The notes: generated from the sequence alone by a model not told the origin. DNA of 64,000 nt from Sphingomonas bacterium (GCA_028292925.1 JAQGLK010000001.1:4557-68556), one strand, 5' to 3'. Numbered from the stretch's first letter, positions 1 through 26,146 are shown. A program made the numbers and translations.

Positions 1-368
1 TGCAGCCGCGCCAGTTCTCCGGCGGGCACATCCCAGCCGGGCTTCAGATCCAGCGCGCGGCGGTAGGAGCGCGCCGCCTCGTCGATCCGCCCGGCGGTCT
101 TGTGGAAATGGCCGAGTTGCAGCGCCAGATCGCCGTCGTCCGGCAGCGCCTGCTGCGCGGCATGGTAGTGATCGCTGGCCTGCGCCAGATGGCCGGCCTC
201 CTTGCGCATGTGGCCGCACTGGATCCGCAGGCGCGCATCGTCCGGGCGAAGCCGCAGCACCTCTTCATAGAGCAAGGCGGCCTCGGGATAGCGCCCCGCC
301 TCCCGCTCGGCGCGGGCACGGGCCAGCAGGTGCGTCGCGATACCTGCTTCCCGAAGTCGGTTTATCAT
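1..368 (-). CDS. TPR-repeat protein, N-terminal part (gene runs off the left edge); probable paralog of the TPR-GT9 protein at 4475-6457
   Basis: Absent from the ORF track because it is open at the window edge. Reverse-strand translation from ATG at 368 gives MINRLREAGIATHLLARARAEREAGRYPEAALLYEEVLRLRPDDARLRIQCGHMRKEAGHLAQASDHYHAAQQALPDDGDLALQLGHFHKTAGRIDEAARSYRRALDLKPGW. This shows 34-residue TPR periodicity, GC-rich third positions, and the same N-terminal layout as 4475-6457. Confidence 0.6.
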   Translation of the reverse strand, partial: MINRLREAGIATHLLARARAEREAGRYPEAALLYEEVLRLRPDDARLRIQCGHMRKEAGHLAQASDHYHAAQQALPDDGDLALQLGHFHKTAGRIDEAARSYRRALDLKPGWDVPAGELARL

Positions 369-558
369 CAAGGAACCCAATGCATTGCCCCCGGCCGGCA
401 CGGTCGGTTCCGCTCCAGGCTTCCTATCGCGCGGTCCTTGCGAAGCCAAGCCGACTCGCAGGTTTCCCGGTCCGCCCTACGGGCGCCAGCCGCCGCAGCT
501 ATCTCGACGGGACACCGACCCTTTGATAAGCGCGGATCATAACCAGGCGGGGGGAGGC

Positions 559-2058
559 GTGTTGCAGGAAGAGTTGGGGGCCGCACCGGGCGTCGAGCCG
601 CATCCGGCGAGCCCTGCCCGGCCCCTCCGGTTCTACCAGTCGCAGGCGCCCCGTCACGACGTGGCGATCGGCGGCGCCGGCACTGCCGATGTCGCGCCGG
701 CAAGCCAGCAGGTGGTGGTCGTCGAGAACGTCCTGCAAAGCGTGGTGGAATATCGCGGCGCCATCCGGGAATGGTTCGGGCTGGTCCGCGAGGGCGGCTT
801 CCTTGTCCTCACCGTGCCCAGCAGCTTCCTGTTCGAGCGCAAGCTGATGCTGCCGGCGACATGGACGGCCGATCAGCGGCGGCTCTACACGCCCGGATCG
901 CTCCTCGCCGAGGTCGAGGAGGCACTCGTTCCGAACACGTACCGCGTTCGCCATCTGGCCGAAGACGATACCGGCTATGACTATGCCCGCGATACAGAGG
1001 AGCGACCGGTCGGCAAGTCCGACCTGACGCTGGTGATCGAGCGGATCGCGCCGCCCGCCTGGACGCTTGCCGGCCGGCCCGCGCCGCCGCCGACCGCCCC
1101 GATGCCGCTGTTCGAGCCCGTGCGCGACCGCGTCGAGCGGACGCGGTCTGGCGCCTCGCACCGCATCCTCGTCCTCAAGCTCGACCATCTCGGCGATTTC
1201 ATCATGGGGATCGCCGCGCTGGAGCGGCTGCGGGAGACGTTCCCCGCTGCCGCGATCACCCTGGTCGTCGGCAGCTGGAACCGCGATCTGGCCGCGGGGC
1301 TGGGCATCGCCGATACGATCCTGAGCTTCGACATCTATCCGCGCAACTCGTCCGAGGAAAAGGTCGACGTAGTCGGCAAGACTTCCGCGTTTCAGGGGCT
1401 CGTCACCGGAAAGTACGACATCGCGATCGATCTGCGCACGGATGGCGATACCCGCTTCCTGCTCCAGTCGGTCGATGCCGATCTGCGTTGCGGGCTGGGC
1501 ACGAAGGCGCAGTTCCGGCACCTGGATATCTTCCTGCCGATCGATACCGTGCGCCACGAGCCGGAAACCGCGCGCGACGACAGTCTCGCGCCCGGTGATT
1601 TTCAGGGGCAGGGCTATACGCGCCGGACGCGCCATCGGTTCGCGGTGCCGGCCGACCGGGAGCGGCATGACGCTGCCATCATCTGGGGCCCCTACTGGAA
1701 CCTGCGGCCCGGCCGCTATGTGTTCGAGCCCTATCTGGAAATCGATCCGGGGACGCCGGGATTCCTGTTCCTCGACATTGCGATCTCGCTGGATCGCGTC
1801 GCCAGCAGGGTGGTCAGCGCGGGCGACCCGTTGCGGTTCGAGTTCGATGTCGAGAAGCCCGGCAGCGTTTTCGAATTCCGGGTCTATGACGACGGCGGAG
1901 ACCGGCGGCCGGCGTTCGACTTCTTCGGCGGTCGCCTGATGCGGCAGGGGGCGAGCAGCGTGCTCCACCAGTCGGAATATCTGATCCTCCTGATCGAACT
2001 CATCCGCCTGCGCGTCGAACGGTTCGGCATCCTGTATGAAGGCGACACCGTTTCGTGA
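559..2058 (+). CDS. Multidomain protein: degenerate class-I methyltransferase remnant plus the N-terminal Rossmann half of a GT9 glycosyltransferase carrying a ~150-aa insertion; the GT9 C-terminal half is missing
   Basis: Track ORF 385-2058. The methyltransferase-like stretch VVVVENVLQSVVEYRGAIREWFGLVREGGFLVLTVP has no clear GxGxG SAM motif upstream. The GT9 N-domain is HRILVLKLDHLGDFIMGIAALERLRETFPAAAITLVVG. Third codon positions become GC-rich only after about nt 559 (GTG 559 / TTG 562 behind GGGGAGG), so 385 is probably not the start. The exact start is uncertain. Confidence 0.6.
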   Translation: MLQEELGAAPGVEPHPASPARPLRFYQSQAPRHDVAIGGAGTADVAPASQQVVVVENVLQSVVEYRGAIREWFGLVREGGFLVLTVPSSFLFERKLMLPATWTADQRRLYTPGSLLAEVEEALVPNTYRVRHLAEDDTGYDYARDTEERPVGKSDLTLVIERIAPPAWTLAGRPAPPPTAPMPLFEPVRDRVERTRSGASHRILVLKLDHLGDFIMGIAALERLRETFPAAAITLVVGSWNRDLAAGLGIADTILSFDIYPRNSSEEKVDVVGKTSAFQGLVTGKYDIAIDLRTDGDTRFLLQSVDADLRCGLGTKAQFRHLDIFLPIDTVRHEPETARDDSLAPGDFQGQGYTRRTRHRFAVPADRERHDAAIIWGPYWNLRPGRYVFEPYLEIDPGTPGFLFLDIAISLDRVASRVVSAGDPLRFEFDVEKPGSVFEFRVYDDGGDRRPAFDFFGGRLMRQGASSVLHQSEYLILLIELIRLRVERFGILYEGDTVS

Positions 2059-2597
2059 GCACGTTGCTGGTATCGCCTTTTTCGAACAGCGATATTCGCG
2101 ACTGGCCGGCCGAGAACTTCAGCAGGTTGATCGCCCTCATGCTCGATCGGCCGGAAGCGCCCGCTTTGATCCGCGTCATCGGCACCGCGGGGCAGCGGCA
2201 GCGCGCCAACGGCATCGTGCGGGAGCTGAGATCGGATCGGGTGCGCAACGATTGCGGCACGCTTCCGTGGCCCGATGTCGTGGCGGAGGTGCGCACGGCG
2301 ACTTGCGTGATCGGCAACAATTCCGGCATTTCCCACCTGTCCGCGTATCTTGGCACGCCGACGGTGTGCATCTTCGGCGGATCCCACCAGCGGCTCGAAT
2401 GGCGGCCGCAGGGGCCGGCGGTGCGATTGCTGACGCGCGCGGTCGGCTGTTCGCCGTGCCACCTCGATCATGGCCGATCGTGCGGCTATGCCAAGGCCTG
2501 CCTGCGGGAGCTGGCGCCGGAGGTTGTGGCCGATGCCGTATCGGAGCTGCTGCGCGGCGGCGGCGGGCAAGAGCATAAGCGGGCGGGGGGCATCTGA
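2055..2597 (+). CDS. GT9 glycosyltransferase, C-terminal (sugar-nucleotide binding) Rossmann half only, as a stand-alone ORF
   Basis: STLLVSPFSNSDIRDWPAENFSRLIALML, VIGNNSGISHLSAYLGTPTVCIFG and CSPCHLDHGRSC match the C-terminal half of heptosyltransferase-family enzymes. Compare YAVLHTGARHPINRWPLASF / LVGNDSGPKHLAAVRGVPTVSLH in 4475-6457. The GTG start overlaps the upstream stop (GTGA at 2055-2058). Confidence 0.65.
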   Translation: MSTLLVSPFSNSDIRDWPAENFSRLIALMLDRPEAPALIRVIGTAGQRQRANGIVRELRSDRVRNDCGTLPWPDVVAEVRTATCVIGNNSGISHLSAYLGTPTVCIFGGSHQRLEWRPQGPAVRLLTRAVGCSPCHLDHGRSCGYAKACLRELAPEVVADAVSELLRGGGGQEHKRAGGI

Positions 2598-3083
2598 ATG
2601 GCTTGGCAGTGGATCAAACGCCTGACCGGGCGGAAGGCGTTGCAGCGGCGTATCGACGGCCTGTCCGACGAGATCGCCGGGCTGCGCACGCTGATCGATA
2701 CGATGCGCGCGGAGCATGACCCCGCGCCGGAGCGCGAACAGGCGGCTGCCGCCATCCAGGAAGCGAGGCAGGCGCGGCAGGAAAGTGCCCTCGCCAGAAC
2801 GGAAGCCGCCACGGCGTTGGCCGAGGCGGTTCGCACCGGGGAAGATGCACGGAAAAACGCCGACGATGCCACCGCACTGCGTGACGCCCTCGCCGCGTCG
2901 CAGGACCGCCTCGAGCGGATGATCGAGGATGCCGGCAGGTCGCGGGAGGAATTGGGCATCCTGGTGGACAAGGCGGACAAACAGAATGCCATCGACCATG
3001 CCGAGTTCCGGCGCGTGGATCTCGCTCTGGCCGAGCGGCTTGAGGCAGTGAAACGATCGATCCCGCGCGGCAGCCAGCAATAG
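2598..3083 (+). CDS. Hypothetical coiled-coil protein (161 aa)
   Basis: ATG immediately follows the stop of the preceding ORF. Third positions are GC-rich. The sequence is rich in A/E/R/L heptad-like stretches (LSDEIAGLRTLIDTMRAEH, LRDALAASQDRLERMIEDAG). I recognise no family motif. Confidence 0.5.
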   Translation: MAWQWIKRLTGRKALQRRIDGLSDEIAGLRTLIDTMRAEHDPAPEREQAAAAIQEARQARQESALARTEAATALAEAVRTGEDARKNADDATALRDALAASQDRLERMIEDAGRSREELGILVDKADKQNAIDHAEFRRVDLALAERLEAVKRSIPRGSQQ

Positions 3084-3241
3084 CCGGCGCTCGCCGCCAG
3101 CGCTTCGGCGGCGGTTCGCCTGCTGGGCGATCGGCGCGACAGGTGCGTGGCGCGGCACCCCTTGCGCGCGTTCGTGCGCGCGTGCATCGGGCGGCTCCGC
3201 CTGCGGATGCAGGAACAGGCGTTCGGCGATAAGGTGAAGCG

Positions 3242-4444
3242 GTGATCCTCCTCGATGAAAATGAAGTCGAGCTTGGCCCCTTCGAGTTCGCGCCGGACTG
3301 GTGCAGCCTTGTCGGCGGACTCGGCGGGTCGCAGCAGGGGCCGGACGATCACTATGTGTTCCACACCCCCTATGCCGATTTCGGCCAGGAGGAGGTGCTG
3401 GTCACGCTCCGCTTCGATGGGCTCGTCGCCACCCGCGGCATGATCGTGCTGCGGGTCCACGCTTATTCGTCCCGGCCGGGCGCGGCCGCGTACCAGATCG
3501 CCTATGCCGAAGCGCCGCTGCGGCTGATCGCGGCGGATGGCGGGACGACGACGTTGCGGTTCAGGCCGGCAGCGAACGTGCTGCATGCCGTCCTCGGCCA
3601 TATCTATGACGGGACGGACGCGACGGCGGCCGGGCTGCGCGTCACGGCGCGGCGTCTGTCCGCGGTCGAGGCGGAGGCCGAAGCCGTCACTGACGAGCGG
3701 CGCACCAGCTTCGGCGCGTCCACGATCCGCGCCGTGCCGCAACTGATGAGCGCCGCCGCCCCCAGGCTGGCGACGCCGATCTCGCAGCCCTGTACCCGGC
3801 CCCAGCTCGCCGAGCCGGTCTATGCCGAATGGGCGGCGCGGATGCACGAGGCGCCGGCGCACGATTCCCGGCAATGGGGCCACATCTATATCCTGCAGGC
3901 CCTTCGCAGCTACGGCGTGCTGGAGGCGGGCGCGCAGGCGATCGGATTCGGCCCGGATGCCGGGGCGATCCCCGCCGTGCTGGCCGATATCGGGTGCCAC
4001 GTGACGATGGCCGATCCCGATGCGCTGGGCGTGGAGGTCTGGCGCAATCCGGCCTTGTGCGACGATGCCACGTTCGATCGCAACGTCTTCCACCGGCCGC
4101 TCAACCGTGCGGATCTGCCGGACGATCTCACCGGCTTCGATCTGCTCTGGTCGCAGCGCAGCCCCAACGATCTGTCGACCGTGACGGACACGGTCGACTT
4201 CATTCATCGCTCGCTTGCCTGCCTGAAGCCCGGCGGGATGGCGGTGCACATGGTAAGCTACGATCCGCTGCCCGGTGCCGAGGCGGACGCGGCAGGCAAC
4301 CCGATCCTGCGCCGCGGCGATCTCGATCGGCTGGCGCTTGGCCTGATCGGGCACGGGCACGAGATCGCCCAGTTCACCTATTCGGGCGGCGATCGCGATC
4401 CCACCGCGTTCGGGATCATCGCCAGGCGCGGCCTGCGCACCTGA
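3242..4444 (+). CDS. Two-domain protein: unknown N-terminal domain plus a class-I SAM-dependent methyltransferase-like C-terminal domain
   Basis: The C-terminal half has a methyltransferase-like layout: AIGFGPDAGAIPAVLADIGCHVTMADPD (motif I-like), FDLLWSQRS, and SLACLKPGGMAVHMV (post-II LKPGG). The N-terminal ~190 aa carry no motif I recognise. GTG start at 3242. Confidence 0.55.
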   Translation: MILLDENEVELGPFEFAPDWCSLVGGLGGSQQGPDDHYVFHTPYADFGQEEVLVTLRFDGLVATRGMIVLRVHAYSSRPGAAAYQIAYAEAPLRLIAADGGTTTLRFRPAANVLHAVLGHIYDGTDATAAGLRVTARRLSAVEAEAEAVTDERRTSFGASTIRAVPQLMSAAAPRLATPISQPCTRPQLAEPVYAEWAARMHEAPAHDSRQWGHIYILQALRSYGVLEAGAQAIGFGPDAGAIPAVLADIGCHVTMADPDALGVEVWRNPALCDDATFDRNVFHRPLNRADLPDDLTGFDLLWSQRSPNDLSTVTDTVDFIHRSLACLKPGGMAVHMVSYDPLPGAEADAAGNPILRRGDLDRLALGLIGHGHEIAQFTYSGGDRDPTAFGIIARRGLRT

Positions 4445-4474
4445 GCCCGCGGCGGCGCGCGCCGCCCGGATCGA

Positions 4475-6457
4475 TCACAGCAGCGGCCGGATCGCCGCCA
4501 TCACCTCATCCACCCGGATCGATCGAACGCATACCGCCTCGCGTCCGCAGAGCTGGATGTCGTTCAGCCCGCAGCCGGTGCACGGCACCCGCTTGGACAG
4601 GATCGTGCCCGGCCCGTCCTGCCCCCATTCGCTCCAGTTGAGCCGATCGACGTGCAGGCTGACCGTCGGCACGCCGCGTACCGCCGCCAGATGCTTCGGC
4701 CCCGAGTCGTTGCCGACCAGAAGCCTGGCGCCGGAAACGATCGCGTCGAACGCATCGCCGTCGATCACGTCGAGTATGCGTACGCGGTTTCTGTCGCGGA
4801 GCGCCGGGTGCGCGGCGGCCGAGGGATCCTCGCAGAACAGCACCACCGTCAGATCGGTTTCCGCCAGCAGGCGTTCGGCAACCGACAGGAAACTGGCCAG
4901 CGGCCAGCGGTTGATCGGGTGCCGCGCGCCGGTGTGCAGCACCGCATAGTTCCCCGCGTGCAAGCGATGCGCATCCAGCGCCGGGCGCGAGGGCGCCACG
5001 CGCGGCACGCTCGGCCGGGTCGGCGTCGCCGCGACCGCCAGCGCCTCGACCAGCGTCAGGACGGCGGCGGCATGCGACATCCGCTCCAGCCGGTTGACCT
5101 TGTCCCGCGATTGCAGGCCGATGCCGTGATCGAGAAAGGTGAAGCGATCGGCGTTGAACCCGACCATGTAGGTCGCGCCGGTCAGCAGCAGCAGCGGCCG
5201 CGTCTCGTCGCCGGGGCAGAGATCGATCGCCAGATCGAACTGCGTTTCGGCGAACAGGGCGCGCAATCGCGCCTCCTCCGCATGAGAGAGGTGACGGCGT
5301 TCGGTCACCGGGCTGTAATCCAGCTTGATCGTCTCGACGCGATCGGCCAGCGCCGATGCCTCGACGATCGGCTTGATCCCCGGCTGGACGAGCACGGTGA
5401 TCGCCGCGTCCGGAAAGATCGCGCGCAGCCGGGCGAGCGCGGGCAGCGAGGCGGAGACGTCACCCAGCTGGTCGGCACGCATCGCCAGGATCGATCGCAC
5501 CGGCGCATCGAAGATCGATCGGGCGGCCGGGCGGGCCTGCGCGGCGGCATCGGCGATCCATGCCCCCGGATCGATCCCGTCCGGCGGCGAGGGGACGAAC
5601 GCATCCGCGCTTTCCAGATCGGGCAGCAGATCGGCAGGTTCGGCGACGTTGACGAACAGCCCCGCGCTTGGCGCATGGTTGCCCGCACGGATCGACAGCC
5701 AGTGGCGGCCGGGCGGCAGGGTGGCGCTGTCGATCCAGATGTTCGCCACGTGCAGCCGGATCGGAATCCGCCCCCGCTCGACGAAGTTGACCGGGGAAAC
5801 GGCGACGCGGACTGCCGCGGCCTCCTCGCCGATCCACAATTCCACCGATTCAAGCCGCGCCAGCGAGAAGATGCGCGCGCGTATCGCCACGGTGCCGGCC
5901 AGCAGCGGCTCGCGTGCGCCGTCCCGCGCCAGCGCCATCGAACCGACCTGATCGAACATGATCGAGGGGTAGTTGTTGCCGCGCACCCGCACCGCGTGAT
6001 TGTCTTCCCGCCCCAGCGAGCCGAGCCAGCGCCGCGGCTCCGTCGTCTCGATCAGGATGCGATCCGGCAGGGTGCGGGCGCTTGGCGCCGCGATGGTCGA
6101 TCCGCCCCCGGCGCCCGCCACCAGCTCGGATCGGTCGGCGATCGCGTAGGGCAGGATATCGGCGCGCGCGCGACGGTTGGTGTCGGCCATCTGCTTCAGC
6201 GCCTCGGGCCGCTGCACCCCCGCAGTGACCTGGCTGTAGGCCGTCACCGCGGCACGGTAATCGCCATATTCCTTCAGGCAGTTGCCGATCTGGATGTGCA
6301 GATCCTCGCGCCACGGCAGCCATTCGAGCGCGCGGCGGTAAGCGACCACCGCCTCGATCCACTCGCCCCGATCGCGGTGCGCGTTCGCGCGCTGGACGTG
6401 CGGGCGGCCGACGCGCAGCCGGGCGAGCCTGCCCGCTGTCTTGAGGAGGTTCGCCAA
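4475..6457 (-). CDS. TPR-repeat / GT9-family (heptosyltransferase-fold) glycosyltransferase fusion protein (660 aa)
   Basis: N-terminal TPRs: RANAHRDRGEWIEAVVAYRRALEWLPWREDLHIQIGNCLKEYGDYRAAVTAY. The middle region of ~250 aa is unassigned. A complete GT9 fold follows: ILAMRADQLGDVSASLPALARLRAIFPDAAITVLV, YAVLHTGARHPINRWPLASF, LVGNDSGPKHLAAVRGVPTVSLH, CTGCGLNDIQLCGREAVC. The only possible start is TTG at 6457. Confidence 0.8.
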   Translation of the reverse strand: MANLLKTAGRLARLRVGRPHVQRANAHRDRGEWIEAVVAYRRALEWLPWREDLHIQIGNCLKEYGDYRAAVTAYSQVTAGVQRPEALKQMADTNRRARADILPYAIADRSELVAGAGGGSTIAAPSARTLPDRILIETTEPRRWLGSLGREDNHAVRVRGNNYPSIMFDQVGSMALARDGAREPLLAGTVAIRARIFSLARLESVELWIGEEAAAVRVAVSPVNFVERGRIPIRLHVANIWIDSATLPPGRHWLSIRAGNHAPSAGLFVNVAEPADLLPDLESADAFVPSPPDGIDPGAWIADAAAQARPAARSIFDAPVRSILAMRADQLGDVSASLPALARLRAIFPDAAITVLVQPGIKPIVEASALADRVETIKLDYSPVTERRHLSHAEEARLRALFAETQFDLAIDLCPGDETRPLLLLTGATYMVGFNADRFTFLDHGIGLQSRDKVNRLERMSHAAAVLTLVEALAVAATPTRPSVPRVAPSRPALDAHRLHAGNYAVLHTGARHPINRWPLASFLSVAERLLAETDLTVVLFCEDPSAAAHPALRDRNRVRILDVIDGDAFDAIVSGARLLVGNDSGPKHLAAVRGVPTVSLHVDRLNWSEWGQDGPGTILSKRVPCTGCGLNDIQLCGREAVCVRSIRVDEVMAAIRPLL

Positions 6458-6732: not shown

Positions 6733-7878
6733 TCAGCGGGTGATCGCGCGGGCGGTGATGAACGGCGAGAAAAGCTGGTTGATGATGTTGACGAACTTGC
6801 TCGGCTGATTGGCGGCGGCGTTCGCGATGTAGATCACGTCCTTGTCGTGCATCACGAATCGCTGCGACAGGAAATAGCTCTGCGGGTTCATCATGTTCAG
6901 CCGGTAGATGACGGGTGCCTCCGGCGCGTCGGGCGTGCGCGGCGCATCGTAGCGGAACAGGAACACCGCCGACGGATCGGCCGCATTCTCGTTCGGGCCG
7001 CCGGCGCGCGCGATCGCTTCCGCCAGCGAAAGGCTGCTGATTTCGAACGGGATCTGCTGTGCGCGAAGGGTAGCACCGAACACGGTGAACGTGCGCGGCC
7101 GACGAAGAAGCTCGATCCGGTCGCCGGGCGCGAGCACGACGTCTTCCGGGGAGCCCGGCCGGATAAGCCCCAGCCGTTCCTCGACCGAGGTGCCGCCGCG
7201 GGTGAAGCGGATCACCATGTCGTCGGTCGGGCTGACGGTGCCGCCAGCGATCGCGACGGCATCCAGGAGGCGTTCGTGGGTGACCGTCACATCGACGCGG
7301 CCGGGCCTGCGGACTTCGCCCGAAACGAAGACGGTGTTCGAAATATTGGTCCGCACCGCGACCAGCACCTGCGGGCTCTGCGATTTGCCTGCAAGGCCGT
7401 TCTCGATCATCCGTTCCACCTCGGCGGCGGTGCGCCCGGCGACGGCGATACGGCCGACATAGGGCAGCTTGATCGTGCCGTCGGCATCGACGGGGACGTT
7501 GGCCAGCGGTTCGCCGCGCGCCGACGGATCGAAGCCGTCCCCGGCCGAGCGGAGTTGCCCGCCGCCCGAGAACAGCGAAACGCCTACCTCGTAGATGCTG
7601 ACCGCCAGGATATCGCCCGCGCCGATCGTGTCGTTCCGGCTGCCGCCCTGGATCAGGCCGAGCGCCGGGGAGGGCTGCGCCTTATCCCGGCCGACGTCGC
7701 GGATGATCGCGGCATCGACATCGACGATGCGATAACCGAGCACGTTCTGCGACCCGTGGGCACTGCGGAGGACCTGGCGGGCGGTAGGGCCGCTGGAGGG
7801 CAGACTGGCGCAGCCGCCGAGCGAAATCGCCAATGCGGCCGCGGCCGAGAAACGCAGGCCGGGAACGGAAAAAGCCAT
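6733..7878 (-). CDS. Polysaccharide export outer-membrane lipoprotein (OPX family, Wza/CtrA-like)
   Basis: Lipoprotein signal MAFSVPGLRFSAAAALAISLGGC with lipobox LGGC. Poly_export/SLBB-type stretches: IGAGDILAVSIYE, PVDADGTIKLPYVGRIAVAGRTAAEVERMI, VFVSGEVRRPGRV. Size is 381 aa. Confidence 0.85.
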   Translation of the reverse strand: MAFSVPGLRFSAAAALAISLGGCASLPSSGPTARQVLRSAHGSQNVLGYRIVDVDAAIIRDVGRDKAQPSPALGLIQGGSRNDTIGAGDILAVSIYEVGVSLFSGGGQLRSAGDGFDPSARGEPLANVPVDADGTIKLPYVGRIAVAGRTAAEVERMIENGLAGKSQSPQVLVAVRTNISNTVFVSGEVRRPGRVDVTVTHERLLDAVAIAGGTVSPTDDMVIRFTRGGTSVEERLGLIRPGSPEDVVLAPGDRIELLRRPRTFTVFGATLRAQQIPFEISSLSLAEAIARAGGPNENAADPSAVFLFRYDAPRTPDAPEAPVIYRLNMMNPQSYFLSQRFVMHDKDVIYIANAAANQPSKFVNIINQLFSPFITARAITR

Positions 7879-8141
7879 CGGTACGAGCTACCTTGCGCAG
7901 GGTGACGGGTGGCAGAGGAAGGCAGTACGCCGATTCATGCCCTTCGCGGCGCCCCGGCAGATCGCGCCCCGAGCGGGCTGGTCCCACAGCGGCACAGCAT
8001 GCCGCCCGGTTAGCATCGCTGCCGAGAAATTCCAGCCTGATTTGCACCGGCACGTCCCGTCCCGCGACGGTGCGGCTGCGCCATTGCCGCCGCCCCCCGC
8101 GGCGACTAGGCGCGGGACGCGGGCGAACGGAGGCGGGCGGG

Positions 8142-9311
8142 ATGCAGCAGGGCGATGCCGGCCGGGTGTGTATCGACGGCCGAATGCTCGGGCCCGGCGG
8201 CACCGGCGTATCGACCTATGCGCGCGGGCTCCGCGCGGCGCTGCCGCTTGCCGGATACGAACCGCTGGTGCTCGCCGAAACCGCCGGGTGGCTGGAGCGG
8301 AAAGGCTGGCCGGGGCTGGCACGCGCCCGTCGGTGGATCGATGCCGCACGGCCGGGCGCGCGACGCGCGGAACGGGTTGGCGGCAATCCCGCGATCTCGG
8401 CACCCGAAATCTTTCGCATCGCGCAACTCTTCTTCGATGTGCATCGCCGGCTGCTGCCGATACGAACCTCGCAGCCGCCGGGGATCATGCACTGGACCTA
8501 TCCGGTTCCGCTTCGCGTCGAGGGCTGGATCAACGTCTATACGGTGCACGATGCCATCCCGCTCACCGCGCCGGGGCTGAGCCCGATCGATCCCCGCCGC
8601 CACGCCCGCCTGCTCGATCGCATCGCCGCCAGCGCCGGGGCGATCGTCACCGTCTCGGCAGCGGCCAAGGCGGAGATCATCGCCGCGACGGGATGGAGCG
8701 ACGGCTTCGTCACCGATTGTTCGCAGGCGGTGCTGCCGCTCACCCCGGCGCCGACGCTGCCGGCAGGGGTGGAACGTGGCCGTTACTTCCTGTTCTGCGG
8801 ATCGATCGAGCCGCGCAAGAACGTGGAGGCGCTCGTTTCCGCATACCGGGCGAGCGGCGCCGGCATTCCGCTGCTGCTGGCGGGGCCCGATGGCTGGCGG
8901 GCGGATCGGATCGCCCGGCAGATCGGCTATGGGCCAGACGTGCGGCGGCTGGACTATCTGGACCAGGATGCGCTTGCCGGGCTGATCGCGGGGGCGCGGG
9001 CCTTGTTGTTCCCGTCGCTCGCCGAGGGGTTCGGCCTGCCCGTGGCCGAGGCGATGGCGCTCGGCACCCCGGTGATGACGAGCGGAACGGGCGCGCTGGC
9101 GGAAACGGCGGGCGGTGCCGCGCTGCTGGTCGATCCCGCGGATACCGATGGGATGGCGCGGGCGATCGCCCGACTGGCCGGGGACGATGCGCTGTGCCGG
9201 GACCTGCGGGCGAGGGGATTGGCGCGTGCGGGCGCCTTCACCGTCGATCGCTTCGCCGCGCGGCTGGCGCCGTTCTACGCCGGGCTCAGGGCAAAAGGCG
9301 GCGCCCGGTAA
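8142..9311 (+). CDS. Glycosyltransferase family 4 (GT-B, GT1-type domain)
   Basis: C-terminal signature EPRKNVEALV...LLFPSLAEGFGLPVAEAMALGTPVMTS. ATG 8142 is preceded by GGAGG at 8129-8133. The 5' 309 nt of the track ORF (7833-) are Arg/Pro-rich and probably non-coding. Confidence 0.85.
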   Translation: MQQGDAGRVCIDGRMLGPGGTGVSTYARGLRAALPLAGYEPLVLAETAGWLERKGWPGLARARRWIDAARPGARRAERVGGNPAISAPEIFRIAQLFFDVHRRLLPIRTSQPPGIMHWTYPVPLRVEGWINVYTVHDAIPLTAPGLSPIDPRRHARLLDRIAASAGAIVTVSAAAKAEIIAATGWSDGFVTDCSQAVLPLTPAPTLPAGVERGRYFLFCGSIEPRKNVEALVSAYRASGAGIPLLLAGPDGWRADRIARQIGYGPDVRRLDYLDQDALAGLIAGARALLFPSLAEGFGLPVAEAMALGTPVMTSGTGALAETAGGAALLVDPADTDGMARAIARLAGDDALCRDLRARGLARAGAFTVDRFAARLAPFYAGLRAKGGAR

Positions 9312-9325
9312 TCGCCGCTGCGTCG

Positions 9326-10168
9326 TCAGCCGGCCAGGCGGGCGTTGGTGACGTGGGCATCGAGCGCGGCAAGCTCGCGGACCAGCGGCGCCAGCTGATC
9401 GAGCGGCCAGGCATTGGGCCCGTCGGAAAGCGCCTGCGCCGGATCGGGATGGGTCTCCATGAACAGCCCGGCGATGCCCACCGCGACGGCGGCGCGTGAG
9501 AGCACCGGCACGAATTCGCGCTGCCCGCCCGAGCTTCCGCCCAGGCCGCCGGGCAGCTGCACCGAATGCGTGGCATCGAAGATCACCGGGCAGCCGGTAT
9601 CGCGCATGATCACCAGCCCGCGCATGTCGGACACCAGATTGTTGTACCCGAACGACGATCCGCGCTCGGCCACCATCAGCCCCGGTTCGGCGATGCCCGC
9701 GGCGGTTGCCGCGGCGCGGGCCTTGGCGATGACATGCGTCATGTCGTGCGGCGCCATGAACTGGGCCTTCTTGATGTTCGATGGCTTGCCGGATGCGGCC
9801 ACCGCCTCGATCAGATCGGTCTGCCTGGCGAGGAAGGCCGGCGTCTGGAGAACGTCGACCACCTCGGCGCAGGGGCCGACCTGCGACGGTTCGTGGACAT
9901 CGGTGAGGATCGGCAGCCCGGTCGCATCGCGGACCTTGGCGAGGATGCGAAGTCCCTCGTCCATCCCCGGCCCGCGGAACGAGCTTGCCGAGCTACGGTT
10001 CGCCTTGTCGAACGAGCTCTTGAAGATGACCAGCATGCCGGTCTCGTCCGCCAGCGCCCGCAGCCGCTCCGCCACCGCCAGGACGAGCGCCTCGGATTCG
10101 ATGACGCATGGCCCGGCGATCAGGAAAAGCGGACGATCCAGGCCGACATCACGGCCGCACAGCTGCAT
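9326..10168 (-). CDS. kdsA: 3-deoxy-8-phosphooctulonate (KDO8P) synthase
   Basis: [65 protein letters not shown] and ETHPDP are KdsA hallmarks. ATG 10168 lies 12 nt after the kpsE stop. The longer track start (10273) would overlap kpsE. Confidence 0.9.
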
Positions 10169-10179
10169 TCCAATGCCCC

Positions 10180-11352
10180 TCAGGCCGCATGTTCGCGAAC
10201 GCCGGCAACGATCAGCCAACCAACCGCATAGGTGAGCAGCAGCCCGAAGAACACGGTGGCGAGAATCCGCCACCTTTCCGGGAAGAGCGACTTTTCGGGA
10301 ATGTTCGGGGCAACGACGCGGACGAGATAGAGCTGCTGCTTCTGCACCTGATCGCGCGCCTTTTCGAACGCGGCGGCCGCCGTCTCGTAGCGCTTCGCCG
10401 CGAACTGCTGCCGCAGCCGCAGTTCCTCGTAGGCGCCAAGGGACGAGGCGATGTTCTGGCGGTTGCCGCCGCCGGCAAGCCGGCCGGATTGGGCGGAGAC
10501 CTGCCCCTGCAGCGCGTTCACCCGGCGGGAGAGCGCGATATATTGCGGGCTGCTCGTGCTCACCAGGCCGCTCATGGCGCTCAACTGCGCGCGCGCGGCG
10601 GCAAGCTGGGTCTCGAGGGCCGTGACCAGACCGATCTGCGCTTCGCCCGACCCCTGCGGATCGATGTCGCCGCGGGTCTGGCGGAATCCGGTGAGGCGGC
10701 CCTGAATCTGCGCGAGCTGATCCTCGGATTCGCGCAGCAGCCTTCGCGACAGCGCCAGCGCATCCGCCTGGCCGCGCGTGTTGAGCATGTTCACCCGCTG
10801 CTCGCCCATCTGCAGCATCGTGCGGATGATGTCGTAGCTGTCATGCGGCCGGAAGGTGCGGACCTTCACGGTCGTGATCCCGGTTTCGGAATTGTACCGC
10901 ACCGAAACCTGCTTGCGATAATGCTTGAGCAGGGTCTCCGCGGTGGGATCGGCCTTTACCCGGCTCAGCACGTCCGCCTCCGGCCGGCGGAAGCGTTCCA
11001 CCAGCCCGACCCGGCGGTTGAGCGTGTCCACCGCATCGTGCGAGGTCAGATAGTCGGCAACGCTCATCGCGTCGGTCTGCGCGGCCGTGGTGCCACCGGC
11101 CAGGCTCAGCACCTGGCCGAGGCCGGTGCCGACGGTCGGGGTCGACTCGGCGGTGCGGACCATCAGGTGCGCCTCCGACTCATACTGGTCGGCCGCGATC
11201 AGGAAGTAATAGCCGGCCACGAGCAGCGTCGGCAGCACCACCACCAGCAGGAACATGCGCCTACGCCGCAGCCATGCCATGACCCCCTGCAACGGCGTCG
11301 GCCGCTGGTGGCGGGAATCCGCCACGGGGGTGATGATGCCGTGCATGTTCAT
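10180..11352 (-). CDS. kpsE: Capsule polysaccharide export inner-membrane protein (PCP-3 family, KpsE/CtrB-like)
   Basis: N-terminal TM segment followed by [16 protein letters not shown], a long coiled-coil periplasmic region, and a C-terminal TM segment ([21 protein letters not shown]). This is KpsE architecture, and the gene sits next to kpsM. Confidence 0.85.
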
Positions 11353-11412
11353 CGTGTCGTCGCCTCTACTCGGTATCGCGCGGGGTGCCGCAGCGCATAC
11401 GTACCCGAAAAA

Positions 11413-12225
11413 TCAGTGCAAGTGGACCTTGCCGCGGACAATCTTCATCGCCACGAGCCCGATGTAGGAAAGCACGAGGCAGCAGCCGATCAGATACGGA
11501 ACGTGGAAATACGTATCCTTCGCGCTCTGGAAATAACCGTAGCGGCACATCTCGAAAATCTGCGGCAGCGGAAACCATTCCAGATACTGCCGGTACGTTT
11601 CCGGGATCCACTCGACCCGGTAGAACGCGCCGGACAGCGGCATCATGATGTACGAGACCGGATGGACCATGCGGCCGAGCGTGCGATTGTCGTGCGTGAT
11701 GCTGACGATGATCATCGACAGGTTGAACGAAAACCAGAACATGATGAACACGCCGAACATCAGCCACAACGGCCGCGGCGGCCAATCGGCAAGGCCGATC
11801 GAGATGAGCAACGCCGTCAGCACCACCAGGCTCAGCGACGTTCCGACGAGTTCGAGCAGGGCGCGCGAGATCATGATGTCGAAGACGGTGACCATCTTGT
11901 GGTACAGGAGCGGAGCGTTGGCCTCGAGGGCCCCTTCGGCGCGGTTGAACAGGCCGCGGAACATGATGAAGATGCAATAGCCCATCACCGCGAACGGCAC
12001 CGGCGCCATGTCGTTGGCATAGTGGGTCGGCTGCCCGGCATGGATCAGCGCGATCATGCTGGCCAGTGTCAGCGGTTCGCCGATCACCCACAGATAGCCG
12101 ACATTCTCGCGGCCATAGCGGGTGTGCAGTTCGCGCATCAGCAGCGCGCCGATCACGTTGCACTGGAGAGCGAGGCTCTGGAAAAAGGTGGGCCGCGCGC
12201 GGGGCGCGGGGGACATCGTGGCCAT
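11413..12225 (-). CDS. kpsM: Capsule polysaccharide ABC transporter permease (ABC-2 type, KpsM/CtrC-like)
   Basis: MRELHTRYGRENVGYLWVIGEPL plus about six hydrophobic helices. ATG 12225 shares one nt with the upstream stop (TGATG). The track fuses it into a 598-aa ORF whose first 328 aa are an Arg/Pro-rich out-of-frame read-through of the upstream same-strand GT4 gene. GC is visibly lower: 47-55% in three 60-nt samples. Confidence 0.85.
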   Translation of the reverse strand: MATMSPAPRARPTFFQSLALQCNVIGALLMRELHTRYGRENVGYLWVIGEPLTLASMIALIHAGQPTHYANDMAPVPFAVMGYCIFIMFRGLFNRAEGALEANAPLLYHKMVTVFDIMISRALLELVGTSLSLVVLTALLISIGLADWPPRPLWLMFGVFIMFWFSFNLSMIIVSITHDNRTLGRMVHPVSYIMMPLSGAFYRVEWIPETYRQYLEWFPLPQIFEMCRYGYFQSAKDTYFHVPYLIGCCLVLSYIGLVAMKIVRGKVHLH

Positions 12226-13505
12226 CAGGCGGCAACCTCTTCGATCAGATCCAGCAGGCCATCGACATGCGCCTCCCACGTCGGCGGCTTCCACCCCGTC
12301 ATCCGTTCGATCTGGCGGACGCGGCGGGGGGACGGGCTGACGGCATAGTCGCTTACCGCCCGGATCCAGGCGTGACCATCCAGCGGATCGAGGAATTCGG
12401 GCACGTCGCCTCCGGCCTCGCGCAAAGCGGGCAGATCGCTGCAGATGACCGGCACACCGGCGCCGAGCGCCTCTGTGACGGGCATGCCGAACCCTTCCGC
12501 AAAGGACGGCATCAGCAGCGCGCGCGATCCGCGCAGCAACCCGGCGACGGAGCGATCGCGCAGATCGGAATGCTCCTCCACCCGGCCGCGCAGCGCGGGG
12601 CAGCGTTCCAGCATGTCGATGACGTTCTCGTTCTCCCAGCCGCGCCGGCCGATCAGGACGAGCCGCGGGGTGCGATCGGCGCCGCGCACCTCCACCATTC
12701 GCCGCCAGATGTTGAGCAGCAGCAGGTGGTTCTTGCGCGGTTCGATCGTGCCGATGCAGACGAAATAGGGGTCGCTGCCGGCGATGCAGTCCGGCCCGGC
12801 GGGCATGTCGTGCGTGCCGAGGTGGATGACGCGAACCAGCGGCATCGGCCCGCCCCCGCGTGCATTTTCCTCGAACGAAAGGCGTGTCGCATCCGAATTG
12901 GCGACGATCGCGGTGCACATCTCCGCCATGGTGTCGATCCGGGCGCGGTGCAGCGCTGCGCCGCTCGCGCGGCCATATTCGGGATATTCGATGGGGATCA
13001 GATCGTGCAGCAGGCAGATCATCTTCGCCTGCTCGCGCTTCAGGATCGCCGCGACCCGCGCGCGCTTGTGCAGATGATGCGGCGATGCCTGGAGGTAGAT
13101 GCGGGGCCCCTGCGGCCGGGGCGGGGGCAGGATGTGCGGCTGCAGGGCCATGCTGGAAAACAGGGCCTCGGCGCGGTGACGCCAGCGGCCGTGGACGGCA
13201 TCGTCCCACCGCGCCTCCGTCCGATCGAGGAAGCGAAGCACCGCCGCATGATCCAGCCGGCCATAGATGCCCGAGGGATGGACGGCGGAAAAGCGCAGGC
13301 GGTGCGGGATCGCGCGGATCAGGTGCCGCGCATAGGCAAGCTCGACCCGGTCGACCCCGGTCGGCGTCGGGTGCAGCATGCGCGAGAGGAGCCGCGACAG
13401 ATCAAGCACGACCTCCGCCTCGCGCACCCCGGCGCGGGCGCTGGGCGCCTGCCCGGTGCGGGGCGGCACATCGAGCGTACCGCTCAGCCGGGCGACCGCG
13501 CTCAC
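12225..13505 (-). CDS. Glycosyltransferase family 4 (GT-B)
   Basis: FVCIGTIEPRKNHLLLL...ALLMPSFAEGFGMPVTEALGAGVPVICSD is the GT4 signature. The GTG start overlaps the kpsS stop (GTGA at 13502-13505). Confidence 0.8.
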   Translation of the reverse strand: MSAVARLSGTLDVPPRTGQAPSARAGVREAEVVLDLSRLLSRMLHPTPTGVDRVELAYARHLIRAIPHRLRFSAVHPSGIYGRLDHAAVLRFLDRTEARWDDAVHGRWRHRAEALFSSMALQPHILPPPRPQGPRIYLQASPHHLHKRARVAAILKREQAKMICLLHDLIPIEYPEYGRASGAALHRARIDTMAEMCTAIVANSDATRLSFEENARGGGPMPLVRVIHLGTHDMPAGPDCIAGSDPYFVCIGTIEPRKNHLLLLNIWRRMVEVRGADRTPRLVLIGRRGWENENVIDMLERCPALRGRVEEHSDLRDRSVAGLLRGSRALLMPSFAEGFGMPVTEALGAGVPVICSDLPALREAGGDVPEFLDPLDGHAWIRAVSDYAVSPSPRRVRQIERMTGWKPPTWEAHVDGLLDLIEEVAA

Positions 13506-14740
13506 AATGTCTCCGGTGCGAGCAGGCCGACCCGATCGCCGCTCAGCCGGTCCGCGGCGGCACTGACCAGCAGTTCCAGCCCCTCGTCGCTCAGGAAACC
13601 GCCGCGGATCAGGCAGCGGTTCAGGAGGACGCGGCAGAAGGCATCGTACAGTTCGGGCCGGGGTGGGCGCGGCGACTTCCAGAAGGTGTCGAGCGGGCCC
13701 TGATGGGTGATCCCGGCAATGTGGTACACGGCCTGGCCGAGCACCGCGACCGGAACCCCGGCGCTGAGCGCGAGCGTGCCCGTCGTGCTGTTGATGGTGA
13801 CCACGCCGCGCGCGTCGGCGACGATCTTGGCGATATCGCCTTCCTCCAGCAGCAGCACCCGATCGGCGACGCCGTGCGCCTCCGCCGCGGCGGACACCAG
13901 CCGACGCCAGTTGATCAGCCCGTTATCGAGCGGATGTTCCTTCACCAGCAGCTTCACCTCCGCCGGCGCGGCGCGGGCGAAGCTTTCGATCACATATTCC
14001 ACCGCCACCTTCATGCTGCCGAACGGCGAGTGGGTGCGGATCTGGTGATCGGAATTGAGCTGGAGCGGGAAAGCGAAATAAGGCGACGATGCCAGCGCCG
14101 CGAACACGGCGGCCGTGCGCCGCCGGGCTTTTGCGCGGGCCGCCAGCCGCCAGAACCAGCCATAGCTTTCCAGCAGCGCGAACTGGGGACGGTGCGACCG
14201 ATAGTGCGGGAACCGCCAGAATTGCAGCAGGGTCTGCGCGTAATAGGCAAAGGCCTCCTTCGCCCGCCGTTCGAAGCTGGAGGCGACGGGCGGATAGGTG
14301 GGCAGCGGCGGCAGCCCGCGCGCTTCGGCCAGATACCAGTTCGGGTCGCGCGACAGCGTGGAATTGCCGTTCACGCCATCCAGCTCCAGCGTCATCCAGT
14401 CCGGCCGGATATAGCCTTCCTCCATGACGTGGATGCGCAGCTTGCGCAGCGTTGCCATGCCGTGCGCGGCCCGGTGCAGCGGCCGGCAATCGCCGAACAG
14501 GACGAGATCGGTGATGCGTTCGTCGGCGACATAGGAATCGAAGAAGCGCGGCCAATCGGCATCGGTGCCGCGATAATCGATGGCGGGGCCGGGCCACGAT
14601 GCGCGATCGCCGCCGTTGAAGTTGATGCGATGGACGCTGTGGCCGTCCGCTTCCAGCCGCTGCGCCAGCATCCAGAAGAAGGGGCCGGGCGGCCCCTGCA
14701 GGAACAGGAACGTTCGGCGGATCGATGGTTGATGCTTCAC
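13502..14740 (-). CDS. kpsS: Capsule biosynthesis protein KpsS (beta-Kdo transferase initiating the poly-Kdo linker)
   Basis: RRTFLFLQGPPGPFFWMLAQRLEADGHSVHRINFNGGD and HVMEEGYIRPDWMTLELDGVNGNS are typical of KpsS/LipB (Capsule_synth family). GTG 14740 overlaps the kpsC stop (GTGA). The longer track start (14866) lies inside kpsC. Confidence 0.85.
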   Translation of the reverse strand: MKHQPSIRRTFLFLQGPPGPFFWMLAQRLEADGHSVHRINFNGGDRASWPGPAIDYRGTDADWPRFFDSYVADERITDLVLFGDCRPLHRAAHGMATLRKLRIHVMEEGYIRPDWMTLELDGVNGNSTLSRDPNWYLAEARGLPPLPTYPPVASSFERRAKEAFAYYAQTLLQFWRFPHYRSHRPQFALLESYGWFWRLAARAKARRRTAAVFAALASSPYFAFPLQLNSDHQIRTHSPFGSMKVAVEYVIESFARAAPAEVKLLVKEHPLDNGLINWRRLVSAAAEAHGVADRVLLLEEGDIAKIVADARGVVTINSTTGTLALSAGVPVAVLGQAVYHIAGITHQGPLDTFWKSPRPPRPELYDAFCRVLLNRCLIRGGFLSDEGLELLVSAAADRLSGDRVGLLAPETL

Positions 14741-16633: not shown

Positions 16634-17650
16634 TCAGCCTTCGCCCGGCAGGCGGCGGCCGACATCCTGCCACGGCTGGCCGATCAGGCCGGAAAGCCGG
16701 TCGCGCGCCGCCCAGAGCCACGGGATCCGCCGCTCCGCCAGGCCGGGCCGGCTGAGCGGATCGAACCCCACCCACGGCAGGAACGGGCTGCGCCGCCCAT
16801 AGGCCCAGATCTCGACACGGGTGGAGGGGCGGGTCGCCGGCACGCGGGCGTGGAAGCCGAACGTGTCGGCGACGATCAGCGTGTTCGCGGGCACGGCAAA
16901 CCGCCGCGGCTTCGGCAGGCCGAGATCGGGCAGTTCCGCGGCCGAGATCCGGAACGACCCCCGCGCCGAAAGCCGATCCGCCCCCGCCGCGCGCAGGCTC
17001 ATCGCCTGTTCCCAGGCGATCCGTTCCGGAGTCAGGCGGTGCGAGCCGGGGACATAGGCGAACGGCCCGTCCTCCTCCGCCACGTCGGTCAGGAACAACC
17101 AGGCCTTCACGGTCGGGTGGAAGGTATCGGCATGGAACTGGGTTTGCGGATCGGGCGGCCCATCCCGGCGGTGGGCAAGGATCGTCTGGATGTAGACCAG
17201 CGGTTCCGAATCGAAGCTGCCGACGTAGCGGTTCAGCCCGCGCCAGCGCGGATCGGCCAGCAGCCGCCGGGCATCGGGGATCGCGGTCAACGCCTCCGGG
17301 TCGAACGCGATGCGGCGGGTGATGGTATCGCCCTGCACCATCTCACGCGCCGGGCCGCGATAGGCCATCGCCGCATCGCGCAGACGGGCGAAGACGTCCG
17401 GCGCAAGGAAATCGCGTACCTCGACGAAGCCGTCGCGGTCGAACGCGGCGCGGTCCGCCGGATCGATCAGGCGGGCGAGCCGCGCCCGGCGCGACCAAGC
17501 CAGCCGGTGGGCGAGTCGCACGCGGGCGGCGTGGAGGCCACGCGCGTTCAGCGCGGGCGATCCGATCAGGGGATTATCGCGGAACGACTTGGCGCCGGTT
17601 GCCAGCTGAGCGATCCAGATCGGCGCCATGAGGTACCGGGCCGCGCTCAT
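16634..17650 (-). CDS. Phytanoyl-CoA dioxygenase (PhyH) family Fe(II)/2-oxoglutarate-dependent oxygenase
   Basis: FHADTFHP (HxD), WLFLTDVAEEDGPFAYVPGSHRL, and a distal FGFHAR. The track ORF starts at 17707, but the first 19 codons use rare AT-ending codons (AGA AAA GAT GGT CCA). I therefore prefer ATG 17650 (MSAARYLMAPIW), though the start is uncertain. Confidence 0.7.
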   Translation of the reverse strand: MSAARYLMAPIWIAQLATGAKSFRDNPLIGSPALNARGLHAARVRLAHRLAWSRRARLARLIDPADRAAFDRDGFVEVRDFLAPDVFARLRDAAMAYRGPAREMVQGDTITRRIAFDPEALTAIPDARRLLADPRWRGLNRYVGSFDSEPLVYIQTILAHRRDGPPDPQTQFHADTFHPTVKAWLFLTDVAEEDGPFAYVPGSHRLTPERIAWEQAMSLRAAGADRLSARGSFRISAAELPDLGLPKPRRFAVPANTLIVADTFGFHARVPATRPSTRVEIWAYGRRSPFLPWVGFDPLSRPGLAERRIPWLWAARDRLSGLIGQPWQDVGRRLPGEG

Positions 17651-17734
17651 GCCGGTCTGCTGTTGGCGGATTGGACCATCTTTTCTCAACAGCATGGTAC
17701 GCCCCATGCGGCAAGCGCCTGTTTCGCGGACATG

Positions 17735-26082: not shown

Positions 26083-26146
26083 TGCACTGCGCCCCCTCAA
26101 GCTGCGCTCAACCGACAGCGCCGCTTCGAGTTGCCTCCGGTCGGTG

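Follow-up and report, generated by a model that had tools for sequence, protein, structure and literature searches.

What role do multidomain relatives of the lipopolysaccharide (LPS)-core heptosyltransferases play in the capsule locus of a bacterium from a genus that lacks LPS? The question arises at the left end of a 64,000-nucleotide stretch of DNA (the window; GCA_028292925.1 JAQGLK010000001.1:4557-68556), for which a sphingomonad host had been considered and whose homolog records identify the host as Sphingomonas. There, a set of genes encodes proteins of glycosyltransferase family 9 (GT9), some of them fused to tetratricopeptide repeats (TPRs), beside kps capsule genes. Known GT9 enzymes are LPS-core heptosyltransferases or autotransporter heptosyltransferases, and Sphingomonas is without LPS. 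Our preferred answer, to which we assign a probability of roughly 0.6, is that the GT9 paralogs are serotype-specific ("region 2") glycosyltransferases of a Kps-type, ATP-binding cassette (ABC)-transporter-dependent, heptose-containing capsule locus. The type of system is familiar and current models are not overturned; a conserved split GT-B enzyme is the unusual extra. Literature searches on TPR-GT9 proteins, heptose-containing Kps capsules, and Sphingomonas heptose polysaccharides yielded no description of this GT9 family, in keeping with the initial annotation, which knew of no characterized TPR-GT9 fusion. As far as we found, GT9 has not previously been tied to Kps capsules. Literature matches for "GT9" turned out to be papers on GT99, and the Sphingomonas polysaccharide promonan was dismissed as a related system, being the product of an unrelated Wzy pathway.

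Architecture of the GT9 Paralogs

Owing to a G+C content of 69%, listings of open reading frames (ORFs) in the window are crowded by spurious frames. Genes at the left end were called from translations and a frame test based on G+C at third codon positions (GC3), which gave 3-368 (-), 559-2058 (+), 2055-2597 (+), 2598-3083 (+), 3242-4444 (+), and 4475-6457 (-). The last of these (GC3 0.86, a real coding gene) encodes a 660-aa protein that was originally described as TPRs, a middle region, and a complete GT9 domain, a layout on which Pfam, AlphaFold, and Foldseek agree. Pfam places TPR_1/TPR_2 at residues 20-48 and Glyco_transf_9 (PF01075) at residues 404-602, the latter with 44.9 bits against a cut-off of 22. 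The AlphaFold model (pLDDT 81) consists of five helices (residues 2-97), a disordered segment (98-161), a β-sandwich (165-271), and a GT-B fold (322-660). When the model was compared with the PDB using Foldseek, GT9 enzymes ranked at the top (3tov, 1e-13; WaaC, 4e-13; WaaF, 2e-12), with TibC (3e-9) and the Xanthomonas OGT homolog XcOGT (2e-8) behind them. TPR and GT9 were the only families that Pfam detected; there was neither a TagF-like phosphotransferase domain nor a GT41 match, and PDB matches to OGT were restricted to TPR residues 20-76. The 66 near full-length relatives, all uncharacterized, belong to Sphingomonas (S. profundi, 69% identity), Sphingobium, and Acetobacteraceae.

A second protein of this kind begins at the edge of the window, where 3-368 (-) holds the first 122 codons of a paralog with strong TPR matches (TPR_2, 7e-12, and other TPR models) and the remainder lies off the left edge. 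An exact-match scan of metagenome contigs gave no leftward extension of the contig. Logan contig L002, which is near-identical to the window, prolongs it leftwards and contains the full gene (L002:1787-3916 (-)); its 709-aa product has TPR, middle, and GT9 regions by profile matches, as expected from the TPR layout first noticed in the edge gene. The 709-aa and 660-aa proteins share 33% identity across their full length (E 2e-80), and the TPR is short, with ~2.5 to 3 repeats. Left of the 709-aa gene on L002 lies another TPR-GT9 paralog of at least 596 aa and the same layout, whose truncated sequence scores 20.7 bits against PF01075 (cut-off 22). At least four GT9 units make up the array, of which two lie largely or entirely beyond the window. 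The initial annotation had counted three TPR-GT9 genes. Two of these stand, one as 122 codons only, whereas the third is a split GT9 without TPRs, and an extra paralog lies to the left. In an 84%-identical relative (L006:120-10409), the same gene set as in window positions 1-6457 occurs in a different order and orientation, with the 660-type gene and the methyltransferase-like gene MT400 (see below) upstream and two TPR-GT9 genes downstream of the split gene. The array has thus been rearranged between close relatives.

The catalytic residues of the GT9 fold are retained in the TPR forms. Alignment of the 660-aa protein with WaaC matches the catalytic D13 to D333 (in the motif "LGD") and D261/H266 to D584/H589 (in "DSGPKH"), all three of which are invariant among 39 homologs. 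The DSGPKH sequence, present in both the 660-aa and 709-aa proteins, fits the published heptosyltransferase signature D261(T/S)(G/A)XXH266 (PMC3559599). The "LGD" Asp recurs in both other TPR-GT9 paralogs (709 and 596 aa) and in the large subunit of the split enzyme. Even so, the GT9 proteins score far below every NCBIfam cut-off for LPS-core enzymes (heptosyltransferase I, 56.4 vs 185.3 bits; II, 32.4 vs 134.6; III, 42.0 vs 170.2; RfaQ, 29.7 vs 467) and so are not orthologs of WaaC, WaaF, or WaaQ. The initial annotation is upheld in both respects, as the C-terminal domains belong to GT9 (PF01075, 44.9 and 49.3 bits against 22) and are not ordinary LPS-core heptosyltransferases. Relative to WaaC, WaaF, and WaaQ (CAZy GT9), the proteins share the Pfam family, the GT-B fold, and, in the TPR forms, the catalytic Asp and signature, and the genes of their relatives are likewise linked to the ADP-heptose pathway. 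They differ in having double the length through the added TPR and β-sandwich, in residing in a kps capsule locus rather than a waa core locus, and in that one paralog is made as two polypeptides.

The middle region proved to be peculiar to the family. A search with residues 140-322 of the 660-aa protein (window 5492-6040 (-)) against 1.84 billion proteins (E<=1e-3) returned 15 representative clusters, all orthologs, and missed even the window's own paralogs, which indicates a domain that is either fast-evolving or very narrowly distributed. Since the matches are confined to its own family, they provide no functional lead.

A Conserved Split GT9 Enzyme

The remaining GT9 unit of the window was first annotated as one gene (559-2597) carrying two GT9 halves. 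Both an N-lobe and a C-lobe are indeed encoded there, but by two ORFs in different frames that share a 4-nt GTGA stop/start overlap: N499 (559-2058 (+), 499 aa), the large subunit as judged by AlphaFold, Foldseek, and BLASTP, and C180 (2055-2597 (+), 180 aa; PF01075, 5e-13), the nucleotide-sugar-binding C-lobe. The AlphaFold model of N499 (pLDDT 83) shows a truncated class-I methyltransferase-like fold (~20-165), a GT9 N-lobe with the catalytic "LGD" Asp (~200-330), a β-sandwich resembling carbohydrate-binding modules (CBMs; ~340-465), and a C-terminal helix. Foldseek matched it to GT9 N-lobes (3tov, 5e-6, rmsd 3.4 Å), to CBM6/22/36/4, which the jelly-roll sandwich resembles, and to S-adenosylmethionine (SAM) methyltransferases (~1e-4), and BLASTP aligned it with the N-lobe of the 660-aa protein (4e-9). 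As read from the model and the family consensus, the methyltransferase-like fold has no strands past motif I. N499 has no Pfam match and, like C180, no TPR; of the pair, C180 alone reaches the Pfam GT9 family (49.3 bits against 22, profile positions 108-237), and it aligns with WaaF residues 195-310. A "GNNSG" motif is kept in nearly all C180 orthologs.

The different frames and the overlap of the two halves, together with the origin of the sequence from a metagenome-assembled genome (MAG), would be expected of a frameshifted pseudogene or an assembly error in a decaying paralog array. We consider this explanation very improbable. A separate C-lobe ORF in the same relative frame, joined by an ATGA or GTGA junction, was found in 17/17 further distinct loci with 46-54% identity, which rules out a sequencing error and identifies the split as real. 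The ~290 homologs of N499 are nearly all ~500 aa and likewise have no Pfam match, the GC3 coding signal is strong in both halves, and their motifs are conserved. An identical N499 protein is recorded in a Sphingomonas MAG, and the N499 gene reappears unchanged in an independent Logan assembly. Fused N499-C180 forms are rare (e.g., P0177, 703 aa). From these sequences, the split is a conserved, translationally coupled two-gene arrangement.

Two-subunit GT-B glycosyltransferases are known from eukaryotes, where Alg13 and Alg14 likewise provide the lobes as separate polypeptides. For N499 and C180, the division is seen in genes and models. The bacterial pair belongs to another GT family, its N-lobe subunit bears methyltransferase-like and CBM-like domains, and its genes are translationally coupled.

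Capsule and Heptose Genes

As the initial annotation had proposed, the array adjoins kpsS, kpsC, and kdsA, and kpsD-, kpsE-, and kpsM-like genes accompany them; these six genes and two GT4 genes all fall inside 12 kb. The gene nearest the array encodes a KpsD/Wza-like outer-membrane polysaccharide export protein (6733-7878 (-); Poly_export, 4e-17; SLBB_2, 3e-19). It is followed by a GT4 glycosyltransferase (8139-9311 (+); Glyco_trans_1_4, 5e-21; Glycos_transf_1, 3e-20), the start of which was placed at the first Met before the domain within ORF 7833-9311, and by a KdsA-like 3-deoxy-D-manno-octulosonate (Kdo)-8-phosphate synthase (9326-10273 (-); DAHP_synth_1, 6e-65). The KpsE-like (Wzz-family) inner-membrane export adaptor (10180-11352 (-); Wzz, 5e-5) scores 23.9 bits, slightly under the gathering score of 25.5, and its homologs (51-59% identity) adjoin kpsM in related Sphingomonas loci. 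A KpsM-like ABC-2 permease was located by tblastn with G. liquefaciens KpsM (11419-12216 (-); 31% identity over 266 aa, E 2e-39); the coordinates are the limits of the match, and the stop codon is at 11413. The overlapping ORF 11366-12235 was rejected as a gene, as it is Arg/Pro-rich nonsense in the wrong frame, kpsM being read in another frame within ORF 11413-13209. Beyond a second GT4 glycosyltransferase (12225-13505 (-); Glyco_trans_1_4, 9e-15) lie the β-Kdo transferases KpsS (13502-14866 (-); Capsule_synth PF05159, 9e-81) and KpsC (14737-16488 (-); PF05159, 1e-48, in two Capsule_synth stretches), the pair by which a Kps-type capsule system is recognized. Of the Kps export machinery, the window encodes KpsD, the KpsE-like protein with its sub-threshold Wzz match, and KpsM; KpsT is encoded in 18 of the collected loci.

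A scan of a one-genome-per-species collection yielded 63 loci, mostly alphaproteobacterial (Sphingomonadaceae, Acetobacteraceae, Methylobacteriaceae/Lichenihabitans, Caulobacteraceae MAGs, Inquilinus, Roseiarcus, Pararobbsia, and a Legionellales MAG), with one to four GT9 paralogs per locus. Genes within 10 kb of the paralogs were surveyed by tblastn; 37 loci extend over at least 20 kb and 26 are shorter. Within this distance, kps export or linker genes were present in 31/63 loci and ADP-heptose pathway genes (hldE, gmhB-like, hldD) in 32/63, a context that fits the earlier suggestion of enzymes building on a β-Kdo linker. One or the other was found in 44/63 loci (28 of the 37 that extend over at least 20 kb). 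HldE encoded beside orthologs passes the NCBIfam equivalog models TIGR02198 (351 vs a cut-off of 345) and TIGR02199 (181.8 vs 181.5), and HldD passes TIGR02197 (384 vs 275); the GmhB-like HAD phosphatase stays under the NCBIfam cut-off. The ADP-heptose pathway whose presence had been raised as a check is in this way encoded in related genomes, but not in the window.

Individual relatives illustrate both associations. Around the S. profundi ortholog are genes for a GT4 glycosyltransferase, HldE, an AGE-family protein, and a HAD phosphatase of the GmhB-like kind. The 84%-identical relative has the GT9 gene set of the window, after which come genes for a 441-aa protein, HldD, a HAD phosphatase, and an AGE-family protein, and in G. 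liquefaciens the ortholog lies directly downstream of kpsD, kpsE, kpsM, and kpsT. From the presence of hldE, gmhB-like, and hldD genes beside orthologs, we infer that ADP-heptose is the donor of the GT9 paralogs.

Two neighbors of the paralogs deserve separate mention. In 21 of the collected loci (L001:5948-7075; also L007, L010, L015, L018, L020, L021, L026, L029, L035, L036, L040, L041, L044, and others), an AGE-family gene (GlcNAc 2-epimerase/mannose isomerase-like) adjoins those for HldE and the GmhB-like phosphatase. No SIS-type GmhA was detected by tblastn across 69 loci with an approximate E. coli GmhA query. Judging from gene content, the AGE protein may replace GmhA as sedoheptulose-7-phosphate isomerase or may make a different heptose epimer. 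The 441-aa protein (L006:10477-11802, outside the window) has no family match and a weak TPR signal toward its C-terminus. No other neighbor accompanies the GT9 paralogs as often (28 of the collected loci). The protein probably belongs to the core of the system, and its gene in the present genome may lie left of the contig end.

Many carriers are MAGs whose names mark them as metawrap or CONCOCT bins, one of them a bin of Lichenihabitans (L009, L013, L025, L026, L028, L047-L054, L056, L060, L068). These names hint that alphaproteobacteria living attached to surfaces or in symbiosis commonly carry the GT9 system.

Weighing the Heptose-Capsule Assignment

Several observations weigh against assigning the paralogs to a heptose-containing Kps capsule. 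No paralog has Lys at the position of WaaC K192: the 660-aa protein has N516 there (invariant), the 709-aa and 596-aa paralogs have Ser, and C180 has Arg. This site, which contacts heptose O5/O6 in L,D-heptosyltransferases, is R or N in D,D-heptosyltransferases (PMC3559599), and its substitution may point to a donor other than heptose. C180 also replaces the signature with NSGISH, the N being conserved in all 18 orthologs; the WahF group has S in place of the signature D, yet is active (PMC3559599). Neither kps nor heptose genes occur within 10 kb in 19/63 loci (9/37 of those of at least 20 kb and 10/26 of the shorter ones), and the S. profundi ortholog has heptose genes nearby but no kps genes. 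No kpsT was found anywhere in the 64-kb window, though it lies beside kpsD or kpsM in related loci. Nor did hldE, gmhB, or hldD appear in the window or its available left flank, so that the heptose pathway of this genome is read from its relatives. Members of the family are known from sequences and predicted models.

Part of this evidence would suit GT9-fold enzymes that use a donor other than ADP-heptose or another lipid-linked acceptor, such as the sphingomonad glycosphingolipid that replaces LPS, with the heptose genes serving another enzyme of the locus. The K192 substitution in every paralog and the missing signature Asp of C180 speak for this alternative, as do a middle domain confined to 15 representative clusters, the GT4 enzymes in these loci, and the lack of heptose genes within 10 kb in some related loci. 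Against it, the TPR forms retain both the D(T/S)(G/A)XXH signature and the catalytic Asp, and no other sugar-activation genes adjoin the family as consistently as those of the heptose pathway. The family also occurs in Acetobacteraceae and Pararobbsia, which make LPS and not glycosphingolipid. On balance, we regard a different donor or acceptor as unlikely. The other competitor, included among the options of the initial annotation, holds that the TPR-GT9 proteins are protein O-heptosyltransferases akin to TibC/Aah or OGT/FlmG, their TPRs and β-sandwich gripping a substrate such as an adhesin, flagellin, or S-layer protein. Pfam confirms the N-terminal TPRs, the order of β-sandwich, GT9 domain, and four invariant Cys near the C-terminus (C626, C629, C637, and C643 in the 660-aa protein) is TibC-like, and Foldseek does reach TibC and XcOGT. 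The C-lobe of TibC contains a Cys4 iron finger (C339/342/358/370), and TibC and Aah resemble the window protein in the GT9-like domain and a preceding β-rich domain (PMC4358343); the Cys spacing of the window protein is C-x2-C-x7-C-x5-C, and TibC has no TPR. Short-query PDB searches and E. coli WaaF gave no alignment through the Cys cluster, the WaaF alignment ending at its start.

The resemblance to TibC does not carry over to substrate or context. By fold, TibC ranks under 3tov, WaaC, and WaaF, and phmmer found no TibC at E<=10. No autotransporter or other candidate substrate is encoded within the island, and in many lineages the genes stand amid kps and nucleotide-heptose genes. The third Cys of the cluster is often Ser in C180 orthologs, many of which have only three Cys, and the β-sandwich of the split paralog resembles CBMs. 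As for the TPRs, on which the protein-directed option mainly rests, matches in Acetobacteraceae begin at ~residue 166 of the 660-aa protein, so the TPR is absent there and dispensable. TPRs are also borne by two capsule polymerases, Cps3D and Cps7D, and by Cps7C, a transition transferase, where they are needed for elongation from the linker (PMC11666461). Given these TPR-fused capsule enzymes and the TPR-less Acetobacteraceae proteins, the repeats are no pointer to protein substrates, and we judge a protein acceptor quite improbable.

Proposed Pathway

A close parallel for a role in capsule synthesis comes from the group 2 capsule enzymes Cps3D, Cps7D, and Cps7C. They also combine TPR and GT-B domains and are encoded beside kpsS/kpsC within the variable part of a kps-type locus, and after the poly-Kdo linker several dedicated enzymes take over (PMC11666461). 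The Cps enzymes make teichoic-acid-like polymers with catalytic domains that are TagF-like phosphotransferases and glycosyltransferases outside GT9 (PMC11666461), whereas the window proteins are GT9 members without a TagF-like domain, with a short TPR and an extra β-sandwich. The resemblance is one of architecture, not of membership.

Two further genes accompany the split enzyme. CC161 (2598-3083 (+); GC3 0.80 in frame), a small Ala/Glu/Arg-rich protein whose start immediately follows the C180 stop codon, is probably a coiled-coil from its sequence, as first annotated, with weak matches to coiled-coil families (ZapB, TMF). A small Ala/Glu/Arg-rich ORF (91-183 aa) follows the C-lobe gene in 13/18 loci including the window (12/17 of the others), mostly overlapping its stop, although CC161 and its positional counterpart in L006 have no sequence similarity. 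MT400 (3242-4444 (+)) combines an N-terminal domain without a family match and a divergent class-I methyltransferase-like C-terminal half (~225-340). Its earlier description as methyltransferase-like is weakly supported by sub-threshold profiles (Methyltransf_23, E 0.034, and 0.0016 for an ortholog in the same profile region); in a profile search of the PDB, the top matches were all SAM methyltransferases (E 0.04-0.4). Ankyrin matches of the single MT400 sequence in the PDB were discarded as chance. MT400 homologs are present in 15 of the collected loci, counting the window.

The heptose-capsule assignment suggests the following pathway. KpsS and KpsC would build a β-Kdo oligomer on a lipid anchor from Kdo supplied via KdsA. 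The GT9 enzymes, probably together with the GT4 pair, would then start and extend a heptose-containing polymer on this linker, with ADP-heptose provided by HldE, the GmhB-like phosphatase, and, in some loci, HldD. The N-terminal TPRs could mediate assembly with other biosynthetic proteins or hand-over from the linker, as in TPR-bearing capsule polymerases, and the CBM-like β-sandwich could hold the growing glycan. One paralog would act as a two-subunit GT-B enzyme, its N-lobe and C-lobe produced from overlapping, coupled genes that are followed by the small coiled-coil partner, and the split module and MT400 may modify or cap chains. The polymer would be exported by KpsM, KpsE, and KpsD with a KpsT encoded elsewhere.

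A capping role would recall WbdD and WbbB, the coiled-coil terminators or rulers of ABC-transporter-dependent O-antigen assembly (cited in PMC11231755). There, as in the series N499-C180-CC161-MT400, glycosyltransferase folds, methyltransferase-like folds, and a coiled coil are joined. In the window, the coiled coil is a separate small protein, the methyltransferase fold of N499 is truncated, and the assignment of MT400 is sub-threshold, so that a WbdD/WbbB-like function of the split module is speculation by analogy. A bolder version of the proposal is that sphingomonads and several other alphaproteobacteria produce a Kps capsule that is rich in heptose and depends on ADP-heptose, in which the GT9 set serves as transition transferases and polymerases, an obligate split GT-B heptosyltransferase with coiled-coil and methyltransferase-like domains forms a capping or length-setting module, and an AGE-family isomerase takes the place of GmhA. 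We offer this full picture tentatively, as a possible though not a probable one.

Other Genes of the Window

The island ends with a PhyH-family (Fe/2-oxoglutarate) dioxygenase gene (16634-17707 (-); PhyH, 1e-12) that directly adjoins kpsC and has homologs in two related loci (L010 and L037); by its family and position, it may encode a sugar or lipid hydroxylase for the capsule. All neighbors within 1-18 kb are polysaccharide genes or encode a small β-barrel outer-membrane protein. From ~18 kb on, the window contains housekeeping genes (NAD synthase, PEP carboxylase, PFK, ThrRS, GlnD, and others), and no heptose or lpx genes were found in 18-64 kb. A protein with DinB_2 and FGE-sulfatase domains (24796-26385 (-)), a pair typical of EgtB-type sulfoxide synthases of the ergothioneine pathway, is unrelated to the capsule finding.

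Conclusions

A distinct clade of multidomain GT9 proteins in capsule loci implies a third role for this family, besides LPS-core and autotransporter heptosylation, in building a capsule polymer on a Kdo-lipid anchor. If correct, this role would explain why a genus without LPS retains Kdo and heptose genes. The proteins are candidate enzymes for heptose polymers, of use in glycoengineering, and the naturally split GT-B enzyme provides a case for studying how the two lobes cooperate. Because the carriers include cultured species (S. gellani, S. prati, S. profundi, and G. liquefaciens), the prediction is directly testable. ADP-heptose is an innate-immune agonist, and its production by bacteria that lack LPS and live in the environment or in association with plants and lichens would therefore be of some wider interest.

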